From Nitrosopumilus sp. (GTDB lineage Archaea; Thermoproteota; Nitrososphaeria; Nitrososphaerales; Nitrosopumilaceae), in contig OZ241981.1 in NCBI GenBank assembly GCA_965204345.1, positions 96,001 to 160,000 of the forward strand: a stretch of DNA of 64,000 bases, in the 5' to 3' direction. The position numbers were made by a program, and so were the translations under genes. Positions 29,881 to 45,603 of this stretch are shown piece by piece. How positions within the stretch are numbered: the stretch's first letter is position 1; each line of letters opens with the position of its first letter. The notes beneath the pieces were generated by a model. It was not told where the DNA came from, made no database searches, and worked only from the letters and a program-made list of their open reading frames with translations.

Positions 29881-29952
29881 TGTGAAATCTTGATGTTTCC
29901 AGAAAGCCATCTGCTAATCATTCTTAATAACAACGCATACCCACACTATCTA

Positions 29953-31506
29953 ATGGTTAGAATCCTACTGCTAGGGTTTTTGGTTTTGACCACCGTAATG
30001 GTGATAATGGCGGTGCCAGCATATGCTGCATACCCTGTCTTGCCATTGGATCAGCATCAGTCAGACATATCAATGGATATGATTCAGTGCAATGACGGCA
30101 AGCTTCTGATGATGACTTTTGCAGGCAAGCCAGTATGCGTAACTAGTGATTCTACAATGCAGTTAGCAGACAGGGGCTATGCCACGGCATACACACCAGA
30201 AACATCCCAAAAAGCCAATGAATCCTTGAATGAAAAGATCACAAACCAGACAGACACGCATGTATTTACTGACAAAGAAAAGCAGATTATTGCTGATTAC
30301 AGAGAATCTTCAATGTTATCATCAGAACCTTCAATTCTTATACACATGTATTCTATAGAACTACCAACATTGCCCAAAGTGGGTCAGACTGCCTTGGTAA
30401 ATTTTACTGGTGTTTATACTGATAAGGTAAATTTTGAACCATACAAGGAACCATTCACACTAAAAGTATTTTCTGGTACTGAGGACAAAGTTCGGTTTCT
30501 TGATGACGCCGTAACAAACGCAGGAACTGATGATCCAGATGTATTTGTGCCATTTGATAATGATGTTGGATATGTGGTAAATGATCCCGTGCTAGGTAGG
30601 GCTTATACCGTACTGGTTACTGTAGAAATTCTAGAAGAAGGATTTATTCACATTAATGCACTTAGATTTAATGGTGCAGAAAATAATATTGGTCGCTACT
30701 TTGCGATATCTGATGAGCATTCTATGATCATAGGTGAGTATATTGATGAGGGATACACTTTTCTGGATCACACCATTGTAGATTTGTACTCTAATATCGA
30801 ACATTTTACACGTGAGGATAAAATTCTCTCGACGGCAACACATGCTAGATCTCTGCGAGTTTGGGGTGAGATGTATAATATGGAACTTTACCCAGATACT
30901 GATGGTGTAATTCAGGCACTTACTAATATGCGTCTTCCATTGGATGATGCAGAACGTGTTTTAAATTATACAAATTTTACGTCAGCGCAAGTTGCCAACA
31001 TCTTGGAAAGATACAAATCAAATCACACTACATCATCAGATGTATCGTCATCCTCTGACCAGCCATTGACTCAGTCACATGGATCTCATGACGGCTGTGG
31101 CAACTATAGGATATTTTTAAAAAAAATCAGCAGTGGTGATATAGTCTGTGTGTTTGTTCCTACTGCTGAAAAACTGATAATTCGAGGCTGGGGTGATATG
31201 ACTCATGAGCCTCATGATATTGAGATTAGTTTTGAAACATTGTACAAGATTGAGCCAGGGCAGGTAAGAACTCCTTTTAATCGTGACTCGGCTGCTATGC
31301 TTGAAGGTGCAAATGAACAATTTTATGATTATTTACATAAATGCAGGCTTGGCACATCTATTGCAAATGAGGATATTCCACCTGAGGGCATTCCAGGAGG
31401 ATGCATCATTTATTTCCCAACTCTACACTTTGAGTTTAAGGATTTTGTATCGATACTGCGCCACAATGACACATTAAGCTGGTTGGATCGTGATAAATTT
31501 TCATAA
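29953..31506 (+). CDS. secreted hypothetical protein with two Cys-pair modules
   Basis: Signal peptide MVRILLLGFL...AYA; IQCNDG...KPVCV...LADRGY and GC...IVCV..PTAEKLIIRGW. Confidence 0.78.
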   Translation: MVRILLLGFLVLTTVMVIMAVPAYAAYPVLPLDQHQSDISMDMIQCNDGKLLMMTFAGKPVCVTSDSTMQLADRGYATAYTPETSQKANESLNEKITNQTDTHVFTDKEKQIIADYRESSMLSSEPSILIHMYSIELPTLPKVGQTALVNFTGVYTDKVNFEPYKEPFTLKVFSGTEDKVRFLDDAVTNAGTDDPDVFVPFDNDVGYVVNDPVLGRAYTVLVTVEILEEGFIHINALRFNGAENNIGRYFAISDEHSMIIGEYIDEGYTFLDHTIVDLYSNIEHFTREDKILSTATHARSLRVWGEMYNMELYPDTDGVIQALTNMRLPLDDAERVLNYTNFTSAQVANILERYKSNHTTSSDVSSSSDQPLTQSHGSHDGCGNYRIFLKKISSGDIVCVFVPTAEKLIIRGWGDMTHEPHDIEISFETLYKIEPGQVRTPFNRDSAAMLEGANEQFYDYLHKCRLGTSIANEDIPPEGIPGGCIIYFPTLHFEFKDFVSILRHNDTLSWLDRDKFS

Positions 31507-34918: not shown

Positions 34919-35338
34919 TCTTAATTTTATTTCTGTTTCTGGGACTGTTTGCTAACGCATATGTTATTTTGTATGTGGTGTATTACATGCATATGACAGC
35001 AATTACATGAATAAAACATGATGTAATATTGATCCTGAGATTTTTTCTGCTGTGTGTTAAAAAATAAAGGCTCCATCTCTCTGTATTTCCAACTGGGGGT
35101 TCATGTGCAAATGTTAATTTTTATAATCAGACTCTGGATTGTTAATTTTCATAGCCAAGTCTCAAATATGCTTCTAGTCTGCTTGGCCAATTGTGTCAAT
35201 AGATGAGCCAATTGTATGCATTTTTTGGCGCATTTTTCATATTTATTCTCAAAATTGATTTTGCGTTTCCTTTGGCTTTGGAAAACAACAACATTTGATA
35301 GCACTTCTAATATAGTATGCCAAAAAACCAACAAACCA

Positions 35339-36612
35339 ATGCGGATTCTGCTTGCCATATCCATTGTATCACTTTTTGGAGTTGCCAGTGCATATGCTGA
35401 GATTGCCTCCCCCTATGAGCAGCTAAAATCCGGCGTGTCACTATATGAAATCCAGTGTGAGTATCAAAAGATTCTACTGGAATCTCCTAGGAACAACAAG
35501 CCGGTATGTGTGAAAAGTGATACGGCAGACATACTGGTAGAGCGGGGCTGGTTCATGATAAAAATATTTGATGAGATGCCAACTGCTGAGTTACCAGTTG
35601 ATGAGCTGCATATAGAAACTACCATCAACCAGACAGAGGGCAGCTCATATGCTGTCTCTGATCCTGTACAGACAGAGACATACTATCCTCATCTAGGAGA
35701 CCCGTATGTTATGTCATTCTATGGTACTACGACCGCATAGATCTATCTGGAATCAAACCACTTCCTGAAGGTGTCTACCTTCCCACAACCATAGAAAACT
35801 ATGAGCGCATCATGCAAAAAATACTTGATGGTATAGACGACAAACTGATACTTCCAAATCTGGAAGGTCCAAGATATGACTATGTTATTGACAACACCTT
35901 GCATGGGGGTACAATACTAGGAGAACGGCTGAACTACACATACTATACAGAACAAGGAAACATTATCAGGCCATATGGCAATACTAAAATAGAATTGATA
36001 ATATTAGAACCTGATAAAATATTCAGGTCAGATTATTTGGATGAAAAATGGCACGAATATGACTCCCTTGACCGAAAGGATGAGCTTGCATTTGCCAAAA
36101 ATCTAACGGCAGGTCCAGAAAAATTTATACAAAACTTTGTGGAAAAATCAGGACTGCCAAGTATAGTAATGACGCAGCATGATTTTGACAATTCATTGAT
36201 ATATCTTGAAAATGGTACAATAGAAATGCGAATGGAATGGGATAATGTGTACATGTATTTTCTGTATCAGGAAGAACCTCACTTTACTCCGCTGTCAAAA
36301 GATACGATGCGTCAATTAATGCATCAGTTTGCTATTGATAATGCACATGTAATAGATCGAGAAGAGTGTGATGGCTTTGTCCTATACGATAACAAGGATG
36401 ATATCAGAATAGTTAGGTTTAGCTACTTTCTAGCAGGAATTCCCATATATCAAGCAGATGTGGGAATTTGTGATCCAACTTGGAATCATCCTACAAATGC
36501 CTTATCTATTAGTATGGAGGGCATTACAGGAGAGATTGGCTGGTTTTCTGGCCCAAAAATAGATGACTGGATTGACAAGATAAACATTCCAGAACATGCC
36601 AAGGTAAGATAA
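35339..36612 (+). pseudogene. variable secreted protein A, copy 1 (frameshifted near 35735)
   Basis: ORFs 35216-35740 and 35812-36612 are the N- and C-terminal parts of the 423/425-aa paralogs; one base is missing before ATAGATCTATCTGG. Confidence 0.85.
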
Positions 36613-36728
36613 AACAGATGTGAATATTGTACATTACACCTCAAAAAGCAAAGCTTGATCATCCATATATGGCCAAAAGCAGACTCTCAGGATACAAATT
36701 TTGATATACTACTCCTTTTGGACAAAGT

Positions 36729-37241
36729 GTGATGGCTAATTTGCTTGCTCTGCTGCTAGCAGTCTTTGCAGTTATGGGAATTGGGCACGCATATGCACAG
36801 ACATCTGAACTGTTTGTACCCTTGCCAGATAGTGAGCTAGAATCACTTGATGTTTTTGAGGGCTATAATTTTGAATCAATGATGGTAGCAATAGATACGC
36901 AAATTTTCTCATCAGAACATCTAAGCATTACAATATTTGGCGAATCAACAACCTTCACAAAAGACTCTGTGGAGTATTATGAAGATGGCAACTATCTGTG
37001 GATAGGTTCCAATGATGATCAAGAGACAGCAATGTTTGAAATAAGCGGTACAAAAGCAGTGGGAGTAATAGACACATTAAACAAAACGTTTCAGGTGTTT
37101 CCTGTAGAGGCCACAACACATGAAGTGTATCTCATTGATCAGTCCCAGTTTCCACCAGACACTGTTGTACCACCTGGTGCAAGTGGTGAACAATCCTTTG
37201 ACAGAGATGAGACATATCACTTAATAGCACTTCTAATATAG
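36729..37241 (+). CDS. B' copy 1: signal peptide plus metalloprotease-prodomain-like region only
   Basis: Near-identical to aa 1-161 of the 1674-aa protein, then the junction-derived tail TYHLIALLI*. Confidence 0.8.
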   Translation: MMANLLALLLAVFAVMGIGHAYAQTSELFVPLPDSELESLDVFEGYNFESMMVAIDTQIFSSEHLSITIFGESTTFTKDSVEYYEDGNYLWIGSNDDQETAMFEISGTKAVGVIDTLNKTFQVFPVEATTHEVYLIDQSQFPPDTVVPPGASGEQSFDRDETYHLIALLI

Positions 37242-37264
37242 TATGCCAAAAAACCAACAAACCA

Positions 37265-38536
37265 ATGCGGATTCTGCTTGCCATATCCATTGTATCACTT
37301 TTTGGAGTTGCTAATGCATATGCTGAGATTGCCTCCCCATATGAGCAGCTAAAATCCGGCGTGTCACTATATGAAATCCAGTGTGAGTATCAAAAGACTC
37401 TGTTGGAATCTCCTAGGAACAACAGGCCTGTATGTGTAAAAAGTGGTACGGCAGACATACTGGTAGAGCGCGGCTGGTATGTGATAAAAATATTTGATGA
37501 GATGCCAACTGCTGAGCCATCACCTGATACAACTCTGCCTGTAGCAACTACTAGCAACCAGACAGAAAGCAACTCAGATGCTGTCTCTGATCCTGTACAG
37601 ACAGAGACATACTATCCTCACATAGAAAATCCGTATCTTGTTTCACGTAGTAGTCACGGCGCTATAGATCTATCTGGAATCAAACCACTTCCTGAAGGTG
37701 TTCACCTTCCCACAACCATAGAAAACTATGAGCGCATTATGCAAAAAATACTTGATGGCATAGATGACAAACTGATACTTCCAAATTCTGAGGGTCCAAG
37801 ATATGACTATGCTATTGAGGAGTTTCCCGGATATCCAGAAATAGGAAATAAACTGAACTATACATACTATACAGAACAAGGAAACATTATCAGGCCAGAC
37901 GGCACTACTAAAATAGAGCTGATAATATTAGAACCTGATGAAATATTCAGGTCAGATTATTTGGATAAAAAATGGGACGAATATGACTCCCTTGACCAAA
38001 AGGATGAGCTTGCATTTGCCAAAAGTCTAATTGCGGGTCCAGAAGAATTCATACAAAACTTTGTAGAAAAATCAGGACTGCCAAGGATAGTAAAGATGAA
38101 CTCTGATTTTGACCGTTCATCGATATATCTTGAAAATGGTAAAATAGACATGCGAATGCAATGGAATAACGTGTACATGTATTTTCTATATAAGGAAGAA
38201 CCTCACTTTACTCCGCTGTCAAAAGATGCGATGCGTCAATTAATGTATCAGTTTGCTATTGATAATGCACATGTAATAGATCGAGAAAGGTGTGATGGCT
38301 TTGTCCTATACGATAGCAAGGAGGATATCAGAGAAGTTTCAATTATATCCTATCGAGCAGGGATTCCCATATGGGAAGCAGATGTGGGAATTTGTGATCC
38401 AACTTGGAATCATCCTACAAATGCCTTATCTATTAGCATGGAGGGCATTACAGGAGAGATTGGCTGGTTCTCTAATCTTATGATAGATGACTGGCTTGAT
38501 AAGATAAACATTCCAGAGCATGCCAAGGTAAGATAA
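37265..38536 (+). CDS. variable secreted protein A, copy 2 (Cys-pair module, P/T linker, PepSY-like C-terminus)
   Basis: Signal peptide ...ANAYA, SPYEQ...IQC...PVCV...LVERGW, C-terminal PLSK..MRQL...GIPIWEADV...MEGITGEI. Confidence 0.88.
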   Translation: MRILLAISIVSLFGVANAYAEIASPYEQLKSGVSLYEIQCEYQKTLLESPRNNRPVCVKSGTADILVERGWYVIKIFDEMPTAEPSPDTTLPVATTSNQTESNSDAVSDPVQTETYYPHIENPYLVSRSSHGAIDLSGIKPLPEGVHLPTTIENYERIMQKILDGIDDKLILPNSEGPRYDYAIEEFPGYPEIGNKLNYTYYTEQGNIIRPDGTTKIELIILEPDEIFRSDYLDKKWDEYDSLDQKDELAFAKSLIAGPEEFIQNFVEKSGLPRIVKMNSDFDRSSIYLENGKIDMRMQWNNVYMYFLYKEEPHFTPLSKDAMRQLMYQFAIDNAHVIDRERCDGFVLYDSKEDIREVSIISYRAGIPIWEADVGICDPTWNHPTNALSISMEGITGEIGWFSNLMIDDWLDKINIPEHAKVR

Positions 38537-38651
38537 GATAGATATGAATATTGTCATTACGCCTCAAAAAGCAAAACTTGGCCATCCATATATGACCAAA
38601 AACAGATTCTCAGGATGCAAATTTTGATATACTGCCCCTTTTGGACATGGT

Positions 38652-39164
38652 GTGATGGCTAATTTGCTTGCCCTCCTACTAACAATCTTTGCAGTTATGA
38701 GTATCGGACACGCATATGCACAGACATCTGAACTGTTTGTACCCTTGCCAGATAGTGAGCTAGAATCACTTGATGTTTTTGAGGGCTATAATTTTGAATC
38801 AAGGATGGTAGCAATAGATACGCAAATTTTCTCATCAGAACATCTAAGCATTACAATATTTGGAGAATCGACAACCTTCACAAAAGACTCTGTGGAGCAT
38901 TATGAAGATGGCAACTATCTGTGGAAAGGTTCCAATAATGATGAAGAGACTGCAATGTTTGAAATAAGCGGTACAAAGGCAGTGGGAATAATAGACACAT
39001 TAAACAAAACATTCCAGGTGTTTCCTGTAGAGGCCACAACACATGAAGTGTATCTCATTGATCATTCCCAGTTTCCACCAGACGCGGTTGTACCACCTGG
39101 TGCAAGTGGTGAGCAATCCTTTGACAGAGATGAGACATATCACTTAATAGCACTTCTAATATAG
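38652..39164 (+). CDS. B' copy 2: signal peptide plus metalloprotease-prodomain-like region only
   Basis: Same length (170 aa) and same junction as 36729-37241, with scattered substitutions. Confidence 0.8.
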   Translation: MMANLLALLLTIFAVMSIGHAYAQTSELFVPLPDSELESLDVFEGYNFESRMVAIDTQIFSSEHLSITIFGESTTFTKDSVEHYEDGNYLWKGSNNDEETAMFEISGTKAVGIIDTLNKTFQVFPVEATTHEVYLIDHSQFPPDAVVPPGASGEQSFDRDETYHLIALLI

Positions 39165-39187
39165 TATGCCAAAAAACCAACAAACCA

Positions 39188-40465
39188 ATGCGGATTCTGC
39201 TTGCCATATCCATTGTATCACTTTTTGGAGTTGCCAATGCATATGCTGAGATTGCCTCCCCCTATGAGCAGCTAAAATCTGGCGTACCACTCTATGAAAT
39301 CCAGTGTGAGTATCAAAAGATTCTGCTGGAATCTCCTAGGAACAACAAGCCTGTATGTGTGAAAAGTGATACGGCAGACATACTGGTAGAGCGCGGCTGG
39401 CATATGATAAAAATATTTGATGAGCTGCCATCTGCTGAGCCATCACCTGATACAACTCTGCCTGTAGCAACTACTGGCAACCAGACAGAAAGCAACTCGG
39501 ATGCTGTCTCTGATCCTATACCGACAAATACATACTATACTGACCTAGGAGACCCGTATGTTATTTCATTCGGTACTACTTCCTATGGCATAGATCTATC
39601 TGGAATCAAACCACTTCCTGAAGGTGTCTACCTTCCCACAACCATAGAAAACTATGAACGCATCATGCAGAAAATACTTGATGGCATAGACGACAAACTA
39701 ATACTTCCAAATTCTGAAGGTCCAAGATATGACTATACTCTTCAACCCCTTCCTGGAGGTCGCGAAGTAGGAAAACGGCTGAACTATACATACTATACAG
39801 AACAAGGAAACATTATCAGGCCAGACGGCGCTACTAAAATAGAGCTGATAATATTAGAACCTGATGAAATATTCAGCTCAGATTATTTGGATAAAAAATG
39901 GGACGAATTTGACTCCCTTGACCAAAAGGATGAGCTTGCATTTGCCAAAAATCTAATAGCAGGTCGAGAAAAATTCCTGCAAAACTTTGTAGAAAAATCA
40001 GAACTACCAAGAATAGTAAATACGAACCATCTGCAGGTGGAATCACTGGCGTATCTTGAAAATGGTCAAATAGAAATGCTAATGCAATGGGGTAATGTGT
40101 ACATGTATTTTACATATAAGGAAAACCCTGACTTTTTACCGTTGTCAAAAAATACGATGCGTCAACTAATGCATCAGTTTGCTATTGATAATGCACACGT
40201 AATAGATCGAGAATGGTGTGATGACCTTGTCATATACGATAGCAAGGATGATGTCAAAAAAATTGGAGTTATCTACTTCCAAGCAGGGATTCCAATATGG
40301 GATGCAGCTGTGGGAACATGTGATCCAATTTTGAATCGTTCTGCAGATGTCGTATATCTTCACATGGAGGGTATTACAGGAGAGATCGGCTGGTTTGAGG
40401 AGGGGCAAACAGAAGACTGGATTGACAAGATAAACATTCCAGAACATGCCAAGATAAGAAGATAA
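39188..40465 (+). CDS. variable secreted protein A, copy 3
   Basis: 425-aa paralog with the same framework and different variable segments. Confidence 0.88.
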   Translation: MRILLAISIVSLFGVANAYAEIASPYEQLKSGVPLYEIQCEYQKILLESPRNNKPVCVKSDTADILVERGWHMIKIFDELPSAEPSPDTTLPVATTGNQTESNSDAVSDPIPTNTYYTDLGDPYVISFGTTSYGIDLSGIKPLPEGVYLPTTIENYERIMQKILDGIDDKLILPNSEGPRYDYTLQPLPGGREVGKRLNYTYYTEQGNIIRPDGATKIELIILEPDEIFSSDYLDKKWDEFDSLDQKDELAFAKNLIAGREKFLQNFVEKSELPRIVNTNHLQVESLAYLENGQIEMLMQWGNVYMYFTYKENPDFLPLSKNTMRQLMHQFAIDNAHVIDREWCDDLVIYDSKDDVKKIGVIYFQAGIPIWDAAVGTCDPILNRSADVVYLHMEGITGEIGWFEEGQTEDWIDKINIPEHAKIRR

Positions 40466-40578
40466 AACAGATATGAAATTGTCACTACACCTCAAAAAGC
40501 AAAACTTGGCCATCATATATGACCAAAAACAGTTTCTCAGAATGTAAATTTTGATATACTGTCCCTTTTGGACAAGGT

Positions 40579-43500
40579 GTGATGGCGAATTTGCTTGTCC
40601 TTCTCCTAACAATCTTTGCAGTTATGGGAATCGGCCACGCATATGCACAGACATCTGAACTGTTTGTACCCTTGCCAGACAGTGAGCTAGAATCACTTGA
40701 TGCTTTTGAAGGGTATAACTTTGAATCAAAGATGGTAACAATAGATACGCAAATTTTCTCATCAGAACGTATAAGCATTACAATATTTGGCCAATCAACA
40801 ACCTTCACAAAAGACTCGGTAGAGCATTATGATGATGGCAACTACCTGTGGATAGGTTCCAATGATGATCAAGAGACTGCAATGTTTGAAATAAGCGGTA
40901 CAAAGGCAGTGGGAGTAATAGACACATTAAACAAAACGTTTCAGGTGTTTCCCGTAGAGGACACAACACATGAAGTGTATCTCATTGATCATTCCCAGTT
41001 TCCACCAGACACTGTTGTACCACCTGGTGCAAGTGGTGAACAATCCTTTGACAGAGATGAGATAGACCATTTAGTGGAATCATACATTGGAGGATTCAAG
41101 TACGATAGATTTACCGAAGAACTGGTCATAGACGTATTCATAGCCATAACTACTGATGCACTTACCGAATATGGTGATTTCGAACGGTTCATCTCAAACT
41201 TGGTAATACGTAACACAGATAGTACGTATGGATATAACGATATTCCAGTTGAACTCAACCTCGTAGATCGTGATATTGTAGAGGGATATACTGAGACTAA
41301 CAAGTTGAGCAAAGATCTTCGTAAATTCCAAACCTCTGATGAGGGCAACTTGGAAAGAATTCGTGTGTTAATAGAGGAGGAACAGGCAGATATTGCAATA
41401 ATGTTTGTTGCTGGTGATGGCGATAAACGTAAGGAAGGTGATTTGGATAACAAATGTTCTCTAACTGCACAACAGCTTGTTAGAAGTCCAAGTACAGCAT
41501 TTGCAGTGGTGGACATAAAATGTCTTGCTGCACACTCTGCAACCAACGCAATAGGGCGTATGCACGGGGCAGGATATGATATCGACATGGAAAGAAATCC
41601 AATTTTCAGTCATGGTCATGGGTATTATGATGCAGGCATTGCCAGTAGAACAATGATGGCATCAAGTGGTGGCAACTGTAATAATCCAATTACTCAGGCA
41701 GAAGAAACATGTAGGAGAGACAGAGCGTGGTCGGATCCATTCAGAAATTTCTTTGGTACAACCAACAGGGCAGGTGATGATGTCAGCTGGAATGCCAGAG
41801 TAATATTTGCAACAGCACCACACATTGCATCACTGCGAGGACCGGCACAGGCATACGAGGACACAAGACCCACGGGCTTTGTGACACTGCCTCAAAACAT
41901 ACCGCGGAGTGGAAGTCTGGATATTTCTGCAACGTTTAATGAGATTATAAGCCCCAATTTTCCGCTTGATGTCACTATCACAGACGGCTATACGTCAACT
42001 ACCGGAACGATGACCCGTACATCAGATACGACATTTGAATACTCGCATCTGCTTGATGGGGAAGATGGCACATTTTCAATACTGTTTTCAAATGCACGCG
42101 ATATATTTGGAAACCCTGTTGTAAGGACCCCTACCTCAGGAGGCACGGTGACACTTGATGCAAACAACATACCTCAAAGCCCAATATCAGGACCATTCAC
42201 TACCAATTTTAAAGATAATTTTCAAGGAGGGCTATCTCAATGGAAGCTTACAGGATACGGCAGACCAACAACAGCTACTCCTGATGAAGTCATATTCCCG
42301 GCAACAGATACAAATACTGCCAACAAAGTAATGTCATCTAATCAATGTAGCAGAATATGCATGTCCACAATACCTACTTTACTTGATACACGCCAACCAC
42401 TTACAATATCCTTTGATAGATTTGTAGACAAATCCATTAGACAGGACGATGGCCTTTATCTGGAATATTCTGTAGATGATGGAGCAACATGGACTACGCT
42501 TGCCGAATATACTAGCGACAACGACGAGGACACAGACGATTGGGAGCGAGAATACCTCTCTCTGGCAATACCTCAAAGCAGTGCAAAACTGCGTCTGCTA
42601 ATGGACGTATCTGAACGCAGAGGCTTTGTAGAAGTAGACAACTTTAAGGTATACAAGCCTACGCCTGCCGAACCTGACATCATTCTCAAACCCCATCTTG
42701 GCGCAGAGAGAACAAGCATATCATTTAGTTTGATGGAGCGAATTCCATTTAGGCTTGATGCCTCTGACTTTGAGATTAGCCATGGAACAATTATTTCGCT
42801 GTCTCATCGCGCAAACTCTGCTGCAGTAACGATGCGTGTTGCAGACATTCCATATGATACGCAAATTACTGTGACATATACGGGACCGAGCATTCTGATA
42901 AATAGAGCATATCTGAATTCGGGTACCAGCGGAGTGACAAACATAATATCAACGCCTGCTACTATGCCCGAAATAACTGCACCATCAGATAAGACAATAG
43001 AGGCAACTGGCATACTTACGCGTCTTACCGCAGAACAGCTTGGAACGCCAGAGGTAACTGGTAACAGACTCTTGCCTGTAACAAACAATGCGCCAAGGGA
43101 TTTCCCACTGGGTGATACGACAGTAAGATGGACTGTAACTGATGCCTCCCGAAACTTTGCAACAGACACTCAGGTTATAACCATACGGGATACGACTCCG
43201 CCGGTAATACAAAAACCTGCCAATATCCTAGTAGAGGCTGCCTCATCATTTACTGCAATACGGCTGACAAACCCCGCAATATCAGATATCTTTCCTGTTG
43301 CCATAACTAACAACGCACCTGACAGGTTTCCCATTGGCACTACAACAGTTACATGGATTGCCACTGATACGTCAGGCAACTCAGTTAGTATGACCCAAGA
43401 TGTCACAATACGGGATACCATGCCGCCACAGCTTGGCACCATACGTGATATGACATTTGAGGCAACAGGTGTATTGACTCCGCTAAATAGTGCAGACTAT

Positions 43501-45603
43501 GGCATCCCATCTGCAACGGATTTGTCTGATGTTACCATAACAAACAACGCACCTGCATCATTCCCACTAGGCAATACCATAATCACCTGGACTGCAACTG
43601 ATGAATCAGGCAATACATCTACAATAACTAGCACAATAACCATCGAAGATACCACTCCTCCCACAATAGCACAGCCTGCACCAATAACTGTGGATGCCAC
43701 AGCAGTACTTACACCCGTATCAATAAGCGCGCCAGCTGCAACTGACATAGTGGATTCAGACGTTGTTGTTGTAACTACCAGTAATACTGCATCATTTGCC
43801 GTTGGAACACACAACATTGTATGGACTGCAACTGATGATTCAGGAAATACTGCAACTCTCACACAGACGGTGACTGTCCGAGATAGGAATCCTCCGACAT
43901 TTACGCACACGCCGTCTGATATCCTGCTGGTATCCCCTGACATGCAGGGAAGAACAGCCATGTTTGATCTGCCAACAGCCACAGATGCCGAAGATCCCAA
44001 CGTTACTGTGACATGCATACCATCACCATCATCATCACGCATATTCCCAGTCGGCTCTACTACCGTATCGTGCACTGCGCGTGACAGCTCCGGCAATACG
44101 GCAACTATATCCTTTAGTGTAATCATATCAAGAGCTGCTGACAGCCCTCCAAGCATTACGGCTCCTGCATCAAAGATAATCATCACGACAGATCAGAGCG
44201 TGGTTTTGCCACCTCAGGAGCTTGGCACACCCATAGTACAGGACGATATGGATTCTAATCCCGTCATAGCAAACAATGCACCTGCGGCATTCTCTCCTGG
44301 CATCACCAAGGTTGTATGGGTTGCCACTGACAGCTATGGAAACAACGCAACTGCAAACCAGTGGATAGTAATACATGATAACGTATCACCGGGCCTGACA
44401 TTATCTGCTGCAGTTACAATAGATACCACCCAGCAGATAACACCCTTTAACACAGGAGATACCCGGATTGCCCAATACCATGACAACCAGCTACTAGTAA
44501 ATCGCTCATCACCGCCAATCTTTCTTGACAATTACCTGCTTGAGCTAGGAGCCAACATCGTAGAATGGACCACAATAGACCCCAGCGGAAACATTGCACA
44601 GCTAAACCAAAATGTCACAGTCCAAAACAGTACGGCTGTTACTGCAAATCAGATATTCCACGATACCTTTGATGACTCGCTTGACTCTTGGATACAGCGT
44701 CACTATGTTCCACATGAAATTCAAGACGAGCAGTGTGATCCTGCTCCCACTAGCCTGTACGGTGCAAGGTACAGTGAGCAGTATGGCGGCTCGGCCCAGA
44801 TATACCGAGAGCATGACTGCGGGGTGTCTGCATCCATAATGTACAAGACAGTGGACATTGCAGATAAATTTGATAACCATAACTTTAGAATGGTCACAGA
44901 GCACATTCACATCTTAGATGATCCCCAATCACACATACTGTATGTTGCCATTGTCAGCAATACAGGACAGGTACTTGGCACTGCCAAGCTAGTAACCCAT
45001 GATTCAATAGACATAAGGGGCAATCACTGGCAGACCACAATTGTACAGAGTAACGGATTTGATGTGGATCGTTGTCCGTGTGTCATACAGCTGTACAGAT
45101 TTGACAGGGGTGATCAAGTGTTGCCGTTGTACACGCATATTGATAACGTACACCTTGCAATGACTAAACCTGCATCCTCTGGGGCATCTGGTGACAGTGA
45201 AATACCGGCAGACAAGCCAACAAATGTGCTTACAGTTGCAGAGTTGGAAAAGTTCATTGCCGAATCATTATACTATGACAGGATAATCATATCTGCAAAA
45301 TATGTTCAGGATGATGATAGTAACAACAACAGCATCGGCATAGGATGGGACGACATAGATGACAGTTATACGCATGACTATACCGTATCTGCATGGCCAG
45401 TATCCAATCCCGATGATATAACAACACACAGTGTCTTGGCATCTGATAATAATAACAATCTCCAACACATGTTTGCAGGACTAGAACCGGACACCCAATA
45501 CATGGTAACAGTACAGGTAACAGGGGATGATTCCACAAGGACAGGCATTACAATATCAACTAGTCAGGCAAATGCAGAAGATGGAGGTGCCAATACAAGT
45601 TGA
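40579..45603 (+). CDS. large secreted/surface protein: prodomain, catalytically degenerate metzincin (M72/M12B-like) domain, Ig-like and jelly-roll-like domains, ~6 HYR repeats, FN3-like C-terminus
   Basis: IDVFIAIT, ADIAIM, TNAIGRMHGAGYD, RTMMA, WSDP, NARVI..AP.IASLR; HYR signature D(T)TPP.I..P...VEA...FP.G.T.VTW.ATD.SGN; FAGLEPDTQYMVTV. Confidence 0.85.
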   Translation: MMANLLVLLLTIFAVMGIGHAYAQTSELFVPLPDSELESLDAFEGYNFESKMVTIDTQIFSSERISITIFGQSTTFTKDSVEHYDDGNYLWIGSNDDQETAMFEISGTKAVGVIDTLNKTFQVFPVEDTTHEVYLIDHSQFPPDTVVPPGASGEQSFDRDEIDHLVESYIGGFKYDRFTEELVIDVFIAITTDALTEYGDFERFISNLVIRNTDSTYGYNDIPVELNLVDRDIVEGYTETNKLSKDLRKFQTSDEGNLERIRVLIEEEQADIAIMFVAGDGDKRKEGDLDNKCSLTAQQLVRSPSTAFAVVDIKCLAAHSATNAIGRMHGAGYDIDMERNPIFSHGHGYYDAGIASRTMMASSGGNCNNPITQAEETCRRDRAWSDPFRNFFGTTNRAGDDVSWNARVIFATAPHIASLRGPAQAYEDTRPTGFVTLPQNIPRSGSLDISATFNEIISPNFPLDVTITDGYTSTTGTMTRTSDTTFEYSHLLDGEDGTFSILFSNARDIFGNPVVRTPTSGGTVTLDANNIPQSPISGPFTTNFKDNFQGGLSQWKLTGYGRPTTATPDEVIFPATDTNTANKVMSSNQCSRICMSTIPTLLDTRQPLTISFDRFVDKSIRQDDGLYLEYSVDDGATWTTLAEYTSDNDEDTDDWEREYLSLAIPQSSAKLRLLMDVSERRGFVEVDNFKVYKPTPAEPDIILKPHLGAERTSISFSLMERIPFRLDASDFEISHGTIISLSHRANSAAVTMRVADIPYDTQITVTYTGPSILINRAYLNSGTSGVTNIISTPATMPEITAPSDKTIEATGILTRLTAEQLGTPEVTGNRLLPVTNNAPRDFPLGDTTVRWTVTDASRNFATDTQVITIRDTTPPVIQKPANILVEAASSFTAIRLTNPAISDIFPVAITNNAPDRFPIGTTTVTWIATDTSGNSVSMTQDVTIRDTMPPQLGTIRDMTFEATGVLTPLNSADYGIPSATDLSDVTITNNAPASFPLGNTIITWTATDESGNTSTITSTITIEDTTPPTIAQPAPITVDATAVLTPVSISAPAATDIVDSDVVVVTTSNTASFAVGTHNIVWTATDDSGNTATLTQTVTVRDRNPPTFTHTPSDILLVSPDMQGRTAMFDLPTATDAEDPNVTVTCIPSPSSSRIFPVGSTTVSCTARDSSGNTATISFSVIISRAADSPPSITAPASKIIITTDQSVVLPPQELGTPIVQDDMDSNPVIANNAPAAFSPGITKVVWVATDSYGNNATANQWIVIHDNVSPGLTLSAAVTIDTTQQITPFNTGDTRIAQYHDNQLLVNRSSPPIFLDNYLLELGANIVEWTTIDPSGNIAQLNQNVTVQNSTAVTANQIFHDTFDDSLDSWIQRHYVPHEIQDEQCDPAPTSLYGARYSEQYGGSAQIYREHDCGVSASIMYKTVDIADKFDNHNFRMVTEHIHILDDPQSHILYVAIVSNTGQVLGTAKLVTHDSIDIRGNHWQTTIVQSNGFDVDRCPCVIQLYRFDRGDQVLPLYTHIDNVHLAMTKPASSGASGDSEIPADKPTNVLTVAELEKFIAESLYYDRIIISAKYVQDDDSNNNSIGIGWDDIDDSYTHDYTVSAWPVSNPDDITTHSVLASDNNNNLQHMFAGLEPDTQYMVTVQVTGDDSTRTGITISTSQANAEDGGANTS

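Follow-up and report, generated by a model that had tools for sequence, protein, structure and literature searches.

How genes that are otherwise almost identical come to differ completely over a handful of short segments is the question raised by a locus in Nitrosopumilus sp. (assembly GCA_965204345.1, contig OZ241981.1, positions 96,001 to 160,000 of the forward strand; this whole stretch of 64,000 nucleotides is referred to below as the window). Three copies of the gene in question, here called gene A, lie there in tandem. Our analysis shows that gene A forms a lineage-specific family of 11 near-identical genes, 10 of them intact, whose members are mosaics of one another. The explanation that we consider very probable is that of a surface-type family of 11 paralogs in which the framework is homogenised while variable cassettes are swapped by homologous recombination.

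Gene A is a family of eleven paralogs

The host genome measures 2.12 Mb, of which 2.04 Mb are in a main contig; its completeness is 99.74% and its reported contamination 3.49%. It encodes an archaeal AmoA (2e-116), so that the host is an ammonia-oxidising archaeon. Gene A is present in 11 copies at seven places, all on the 2.04-Mb main contig, and 10 of the 11 have open frames of 417-451 aa. A first-pass annotation made from the letters of the window had described three copies; these are real, and they belong to the 11-copy family that it had missed. They fall within three direct tandem units at window 35292-41070 (start-to-start 1923-1929 nt, ~1925 bp each), every unit consisting of gene A (423-425 aa), a spacer of ~115 nt and an open reading frame (ORF) of 170 aa, B', which duplicates the first ~165 codons of the giant gene B downstream. 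The outer limits given at first pass are correct, with the ATG of A1 at 35339 and the stop codon of A3 ending at 40465.

35339..36612, plus strand: A1, gene A copy 1, broken (from ORFs and alignment)
37265..38536, plus strand: A2, gene A copy 2, 423 aa, intact
39188..40465, plus strand: A3, gene A copy 3, 425 aa, intact

What had been overlooked is a frameshift in A1, where a 1-nt deletion after window 35727 leaves two ORFs, 35216-35740 and 35812-36612; the deletion falls outside any homopolymer. As read from its sequence A1 may be a pseudogene or possibly a silent cassette donor. Elsewhere in the genome a lone 32-codon remnant of the conserved gene A 3' end (...NDWVDKINTPEHAKVG*; G000:C1:1700508-1700604) is probably the relic of a twelfth copy.

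Seven hypervariable segments in a common frame

The description of near-identical stretches broken by rewritten short segments holds in a three-way DNA alignment, in which identity is 83-95% (families D1-D6) and is interrupted by blocks with almost no conserved columns and by in-frame indels, and all six variable segments that had been quoted are found in the translations of A1-A3. Alignment of the 11 proteins extends that set to seven hypervariable (HV) segments and a linker of variable repeat length, the rest being nearly invariant; the additions are a short segment at A2 residues 211-216 and the linker itself. A2 is laid out as a signal peptide, a WING-49 module (residues 25-72), a linker (80-116) and a C-terminal variable domain (133-423), and its variable parts, all on the plus strand, are as follows.

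37502..37564, plus strand: repeat-length-variable part of the linker, A2 residues 80-100, rich in Pro, Thr, Ala and Glu, with in-frame differences in repeat number
37613..37663, plus strand: HV1, residues 117-133, with indels; model confidence low
37811..37855, plus strand: HV2, residues 183-197, the sole low-confidence stretch of the domain model
37895..37912, plus strand: HV3, residues 211-216, a turn joining two strands in the model; absent from the first-pass list
38093..38131, plus strand: HV4, residues 277-289, a predicted beta-hairpin of the first helix-plus-sheet module
38288..38359, plus strand: HV5, residues 342-365 with core strand 356-364, starting beside the invariant Cys343
38396..38437, plus strand: HV6, residues 378-391, directly after the invariant Cys377
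38471..38488, plus strand: HV7, residues 403-408, a loop after the invariant GEIGWF strand

Copies are mosaics produced by recombination

The nearest relative of each copy shifts along the gene. Over alignment residues ~330-480, which hold HV5, HV6 and HV7, A3 has 99-100% DNA identity to a037 (C1:37574), a copy 98 kb off; over residues 181-315, with HV2 and HV4, it is 90-99% identical to a1796 (C1:1796264), 1.66 Mb off, and its 5' end is closest to a294 and a284. A1 is 94-100% identical to a334 (C1:334463) over residues 1-165 and 86-94% onward to residue 225, and is most like A2 over residues 300-465, while A2 is itself a patchwork of a037-like, a197-like, a296-like and A1-like stretches. Recombination is also evident from the pairwise homoplasy index (PHI), for which the 255 informative sites gave an observed value of 0.424 as compared with 0.584 under the null (z = -20.6, 0 of 1000 permutations as low), with 53% of informative site pairs incompatible.

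Where both members of a segment pair are of one cassette type (25 of 385 pairs), the proportion of synonymous differences (pS) is 0.061, as compared with a pS of 0.303 and a proportion of non-synonymous differences (pN) of 0.407 in the other 360, a contrast in sequence that fits recent transfer of old cassette lineages. Two copies carry in-frame internal duplications of 23-25 aa that repeat a neighbouring conserved motif, one in HV5 of a284 (L031; CD..LYDSKDD) and one in HV6 of a1796 (L036; 25 aa; GICD.IY), and these look like products of misaligned exchange. Taken as sequence comparisons, these patterns point to cassette exchange among paralogs by homologous recombination as the main generator of variation.

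Alleles in other strains and in public sequence data

A word-indexed search of 5.8 billion proteins returned 17 matches, all of at least 73% identity; nine of them lie outside this genome, on contigs of 6-276 kb from other assemblies. P0002, from a sister strain, has 43 aligned differences from A2, every one of them within the first 214 residues, and agrees with it at all 209 positions from residue 215 to 423, so a near-identical strain bears other cassettes in the 5' half of one copy. The cassettes of that half are types known from other paralogs, and the comparison shows a recent exchange between near-identical strains. P0010 differs from A3, and P0012 from a334, at 4 positions each. In order to type the cassettes we used 19 alleles, excluding the partial P0017, which gave 7-11 types per segment and 17 distinct combinations across the 19 alleles; all four combinations of two types were seen in 4 of the 21 segment pairs. 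Scans of genome and metagenome contigs for further DNA alleles gave none that could be confirmed.

Part of the stretch is present in 18 of 24 listed public runs (6 studies), mostly labelled sponge metagenome. Four runs of four studies (X1, X6, X9 and X10) were aligned to window 37150-39180; their contigs are short (<=320 nt) and do not tell paralogs apart from allelic variants in the population. Each of the four runs holds A2-specific pieces, of 121-316 nt and with 0 differences, at 38066-38222 (X1), 38095-38215 (X6), 38437-38752 (X9) and 38055-38215 (X10), and this recurrence across four studies would suggest a stable cassette pool. The a284-type insertion recurs as a 'goes back 38' joint in contigs of X6 and X9, and loose contig ends lie at the borders of the linker, HV1, HV2, HV3 and HV7. 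X9 and X10 are metatranscriptomic libraries, in keeping with expression of gene A. Of the aligned runs X1 and X10 alone carry sponge labels, and an association of the archaeon with sponges is therefore probable.

These data bear on whether the mosaics could be an artefact, with strain variants or paralogs joined into chimeric genes during metagenome assembly. The family is repetitive, the public short-read contigs break at borders between framework and HV segments and some contamination of the genome is reported; against this, all copies lie on one contig of 2.04 Mb and the PHI test is still significant on framework sites alone (141 sites, z = -9.8). Alleles from other assemblies match A3 and a334 with the 4 differences given above and the C-terminal 209 residues of A2 exactly, and contigs of independent runs span both the B'-to-A2 junction (37176-37311, one X10 contig, 2 differences) and the passage from A2 to B' (38437-38752, 0 differences). 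We regard such an artefact as highly improbable.

The variable domain and its predicted structure

The N-terminus of the gene A protein is a hydrophobic, signal-like sequence ending in AYA (read from the sequence). A Pfam search of the protein gave no match; the NCBIfam family WING-49 (NF058652) matches A2 residues 25-72 with 50.8 bits against a cut-off of 22. WING-49 matches number 30 genome-wide; gene A accounts for 11, and the others fall on further secreted-looking proteins, giants among them, some on open frames of 2273-2694 aa. A literature search for the name WING-49 found no paper using it. These features point to a protein that is secreted or surface-displayed. A WING-49 module (67.5 bits) likewise opens a 538-aa secreted-looking ORF at window 29890-31506.

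The C-terminal 291 residues are a near-orphan, with nine matches at E <= 0.001 among 1.84 billion representatives. Among 201 sampled genomes of the archaeal family (27 genera) the domain is found in two, this one with its 11 copies and G041, of another genus, with a single homologue of 42% identity (L047:6574-7944). The latter adjoins a DDE_3 transposase, two tyrosine recombinases, an actin-like protein and a TrwB-like protein, with no HYR giant beside it, which places this homologue within or beside an integrated mobile element. The architecture is conserved in distant homologues, as are two invariant cysteines, Cys343 immediately ahead of HV5 and Cys377 immediately ahead of HV6.

Structures were modelled with AlphaFold2 from a 23-row alignment, giving a mean predicted local distance difference test score (pLDDT) of 64.4 for the full-length protein, and for the domain alone a pLDDT of 78.8 and a predicted template modelling score of 0.63. 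The variable domain is predicted to consist of two modules of helix plus antiparallel sheet over ~290 aa. Overlaid on the secondary structure of the predicted model, entropy averages 0.28 for helices, 0.73 for strands and 0.58 for coil; helices hold 8 of the 67 residues that exceed 1 bit, and a helix value as low arose in 2.1% of circular shifts. Along strand 292-299 entropy alternates (0/1.8/0/1.6/0/0.5/0/1.0 bits), and strand 367-376 behaves similarly. In the model this avoidance of helices and alternation along strands fits exposure, as would be expected of one exposed sheet face.

Fold comparison with VIA-align, for which the bar of reliability is Z 8, gave YycH (2fgt, Z 7.0, rmsd 6.0, 118 aa), followed below the same bar by EUBREC_2869 (5coz, Z 6.6), CD1622 (4exr, Z 5.8, rmsd 2.5, 65 aa), YpeB-C (5boi, Z 5.6) and YpmB (2gu3, Z 4.6). 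An Atlas feature search gave sub-threshold leads of at most 0.84, with YpeB/PepSY clusters at 0.80-0.81, and a sequence search of the PDB gave noise alone (E 0.03-0.04). A PepSY/YycH-like extracellular module is thus a lead from modelling, at most a resemblance of fold type. A predicted complex of the A variable domain with the N-terminal domain of B scored 0.00, a value that has no bearing on binding either way.

Divergence and selection in framework and variable segments

In order to compare the parts of the gene we made Nei-Gojobori counts for all 55 pairs of the 11 copies, with variable segments picked by amino-acid variability. The N-terminal module has a pS of 0.146 and a pN of 0.024 (pN/pS 0.16), the framework of the C-terminal domain 0.142 and 0.073 (0.51), and the variable segments 0.288 and 0.384 (1.33). 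The non-coding A-B spacer has a mean identity of 85% and a divergence of 0.15 (28 pairs), and because the framework pS of 0.142 is about the same, the framework stands at the neutral level of divergence. Its near-invariance, noted in the first-pass annotation, reflects homogenisation or recent copying and not exceptional constraint, whereas the variable segments are 2-3 times more diverged than the neutral sequence of the repeat.

As these segments had been chosen by their variability, the test was repeated with the segments quoted at first pass, which had been defined on A1-A3, measured only on the 8 other paralogs so as to limit ascertainment bias. In this retest (bootstrap 95% confidence intervals in brackets) pN/pS was 1.34 (1.01-1.84) in the HV segments as compared with 0.50 (0.36-0.69) in the framework, the ratio of HV pN to framework pS was 2.41 (1.87-3.20), and that of HV pS to framework pS 1.79 (1.23-2.58). 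The ratio is thus raised in the segments over the framework, in agreement with the expectation set at first pass. The diversifying selection proposed there stands insofar as pN/pS in the quoted segments exceeds that of the framework; the differences among A1-A3 on which it had been based are, however, largely exchanged cassettes and not changes made in place. Selection for diversity in the variable segments is supported by these sequence counts but is borderline.

The same figures have to be weighed under a neutral explanation, in which the variable segments would be unconstrained loops, conversion would homogenise the remainder of the gene, mismatches would block conversion at diverged patches and there would be no selection for diversity. 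A framework at the neutral level is what it predicts, and pS in the variable segments is also raised, 1.8 times over the framework; whole cassettes do transfer between copies, however, so the patches are not refractory to exchange. A pN/pS of 1.34 with a lower bound of 1.01 is near the neutral value of 1, but the fractions of variable columns at codon positions 1, 2 and 3 are 0.83, 0.77 and 0.66 in the HV segments, positions 1 and 2 exceeding position 3, as compared with 0.23, 0.18 and 0.33, the reverse order, in the framework. HV1 and HV2, of low confidence in the full-length model, might be free loops, whereas HV4, HV5 and HV6 lie on predicted strands, and the alternation of variable and invariant residues in strands 292-299 and 367-376 speaks for a constraint that is structured and acts on one side. 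In addition all indels are in-frame and 10 of the 11 copies are open. We consider the neutral explanation unlikely.

No diversity-generating retroelement and no silent archive

Local hypervariability in a conserved scaffold superficially resembles the variable regions of diversity-generating retroelements (DGRs), and targeted hypermutation of the segments by a DGR or similar mutator was therefore considered. Gene A differs from this in having seven separate segments and not one C-terminal region, in the recurrence of identical cassettes in four studies and in the presence of indels, and we see next to no chance that hypermutation is the source of its variation. The absence of a reverse transcriptase from the window, stated at first pass, extends to the whole genome, in which there are 0 RVT_1 (PF00078) matches at 99.74% completeness, with 3 of 14 control genomes positive. 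The variable-column fractions (A 0.67, C 0.89, G 0.83, T 0.68) show no adenine bias, and a blastn search of all copies against the genome found no template-like or silent partial copy, returning the full-length copies and one 3' relic (32 codons; match ~50 nt). A DGR is excluded by the lack of reverse transcriptase, adenine bias and template repeat together with the indels. A silent archive of the pilS type is also excluded, all copies being full-length with a common upstream element and the sole partial one being the 32-codon 3' relic.

A model of cassette exchange

Framework of 85-95% identity would allow homologous recombination between copies, both within arrays and across loci up to 1.66 Mb apart. 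Non-reciprocal tracts of ~100-650 nt would carry short variable cassettes from copy to copy, so that each gene would end up as a composite, with one of 7-11 cassette types at each of its seven variable positions. This exchange would also hold the framework homogeneous at about the neutral level of divergence (concerted evolution), while the cassettes would be lineages of greater age, whose diversity persists because changes of amino acid are favoured or, at the least, tolerated. The enzymology would presumably be homologous recombination of the RadA type, and host recognition or viruses the putative selective agent.

Several points weigh against this model. The sister-strain alleles are proteins only, a level at which tract ends and transfer direction do not show, and the RNA libraries that contain the sequence are assembled contigs with possible DNA content. 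The HV pN/pS barely exceeds 1 (lower bound 1.01), the retest is not fully independent, as cassettes of A1-A3 also occur in the 8 paralogs used for it, alignment within indel-rich segments may inflate pS and pN alike, and the selection figures are pairwise counts. As for the fold, every match lies below the reliability bar of the tool (best Z 7.0), and Foldseek gave 0 matches at E <= 0.001 on both models.

Arrangement of the family and its neighbourhood

Four of the seven places have the arrangement A(-B'-A)n-B, with B an HYR protein of 1472-1681 aa, and three copies of gene A are solo. Common to all 11 copies are ~115 nt downstream and ~55 nt upstream, the latter with TAATATAG at 31 nt from the ATG; the four internal copies (A2, A3, a296 and a1798) have one identical B'|A junction, and ~50 nt of B are still retained by the solo copy a037. 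The ancestral module was therefore A followed by B. The remaining features of the tandem locus are given below.

36729..37241, plus strand: B'1, 170-aa ORF copied from the giant HYR protein (signal peptide and ~165 N-terminal aa)
37221..37264, plus strand: part of the upstream element 3' of the duplication junction (element ~55 nt, common to 11/11 copies)
38652..39164, plus strand: B'2, second 170-aa duplicate of the 5' end of the giant gene, with the same junction as B'1
40579..45603, plus strand: gene B at full length, a predicted secreted protein of 1674 aa with HYR repeats

The end of B'1 is the duplication junction, its TAG stop lying inside TAATATAG upstream of A2. This TATA-like sequence, at 37234-37241, is 31 nt before the A2 ATG, and judging by sequence and position the element would be a promoter, from which each copy would be expressed independently. 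There are four truncated B' ORFs of 170 aa in three clusters, the two in the window (B'1 and B'2) and those at G000:C1:295469-295981 and 1797736-1798248. All four stop at one junction (...DRDETYHLIALLI*) with the stop codon within TAATATAG of the next A gene, so that either the A+B' unit arose once and then spread or the junction spread by conversion. The N-terminal region of B has a pS of 0.226 and a pN of 0.047, indicating purifying selection. A conserved hairpin with a 9-bp stem is found in the A-B spacer (window 38577-38600 and 40505-40527); it was scored as terminator-like on the minus strand, lies on the plus strand between A and B' and may be a regulatory or terminator element.

Besides its HYR repeats gene B has weaker Reelin-subrepeat-B-like and fn3 matches. 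The four giant HYR proteins (window 40579-45603; L031:3093-8138(-); L032:2374-6792; L036:10659-15179) are themselves mosaic: B284 and B297 are 91-100% identical for about 900 alignment columns from the start, save for the ninth block of 100 columns with 81%, and over the remainder B284 is 96-100% identical to B131. Three transposase genes of the DDE_Tnp_IS240 (IS6-type) family, of ~450 aa (L031:10268-11620, L031:13907-15259 and L033:5454-6800(-)), adjoin copies a284 and a334 and sit between clusters, and such transposases may be linked to the dispersal of the family. The a294-a296-B cluster is flanked by S8 subtilase genes of 772 and 760 aa (L031:15530-17848(-) and L032:7408-9690), which are noted here beside a protein with a weak PepSY-like resemblance.

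Significance

Bacterial and protozoan pathogens that face adaptive immunity classically shuffle cassettes among paralogs. Gene A might be an archaeal counterpart of such antigenic or surface variation, in which a symbiont would show combinatorial alpha/beta heads and reshuffle exposed cassettes by intragenomic gene conversion, thereby escaping sponge innate receptors and phagocytes or receptor-using viruses; we offer this as a speculative extension with a modest chance of being correct. The giant HYR adhesin encoded immediately downstream would possibly carry the variable heads or stand beside them. If true, Archaea would have a surface-variation system that looks programmed, and the host driving it would lack adaptive immunity. 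The genetic architecture of those pathogens in an ammonia-oxidising archaeon that probably lives in sponges would point to strong, changing selection on an archaeal surface protein, through host recognition or viruses, and gene A would offer a sequence-defined handle on the interaction of an archaeal symbiont with its animal host. Frequent gene conversion between dispersed loci is shown in this archaeal group, and a near-orphan domain (2 of 201 genomes of the archaeal family) is flagged for structural and binding studies.

The gene A family is undescribed in the full-text literature searched and in the passages of sponge-archaeon genome papers that were available, whose supplements (eukaryotic-like proteins, gene families) may mention the genes. 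Those passages mention HYR proteins, extra transposases and expanded subtilases, and the terms 'gene conversion' and 'paralog' have 0 occurrences in them.

Comparison with known systems

The likeness to antibodies suggested by hypervariable segments in a constant frame is an analogy only. With DGRs gene A has in common a local hypervariability on a stable protein scaffold, and it differs from them in having indels and in having neither a reverse transcriptase, nor a template repeat, nor an adenine-specific pattern. In Neisseria pilE/pilS, Borrelia vlsE and Anaplasma msp2, segmental gene conversion puts variable cassettes into a conserved frame, one gene being expressed and many truncated silent copies acting as donors. 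Gene A likewise has variable cassettes in a conserved frame; unlike in these systems its copies are full-length with the same upstream element, and the frameshifted A1 is the only candidate silent donor. Wsp, on the surface of the symbiont Wolbachia, reportedly has a conserved frame with several hypervariable regions, whose combinations are shuffled by recombination. Wsp is a single-copy gene shuffled between strains, whereas the donors of gene A are the 11 paralogs of one genome.

The Opa proteins of Neisseria are bacterial outer-membrane beta-barrels that are switched on and off by coding repeats and whose alleles are continuously reshuffled by recombination between loci. A preprint gives ~9-12 complete opa loci per genome, with semivariable and hypervariable regions in a conserved frame (bioRxiv 10.64898/2026.02.02.703239). 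Gene A differs from Opa in its archaeal host, its predicted alpha/beta fold and its lack of a Pfam match, in the absence of a length-variable repeat from the upstream and signal-peptide region of the 11 copies (~55 nt upstream and 30 nt at the start of the coding sequence hardly vary in length or sequence, and the aligned signal peptides are free of indels) and in its setting, the presumed host not being known for adaptive immunity. Like Opa it has a set of 11 loci (10 open), seven HV segments in a conserved frame and exchange between loci (PHI z = -20.6). In mode of action Neisseria Opa is the closest known counterpart of gene A, which is not a member of that family.

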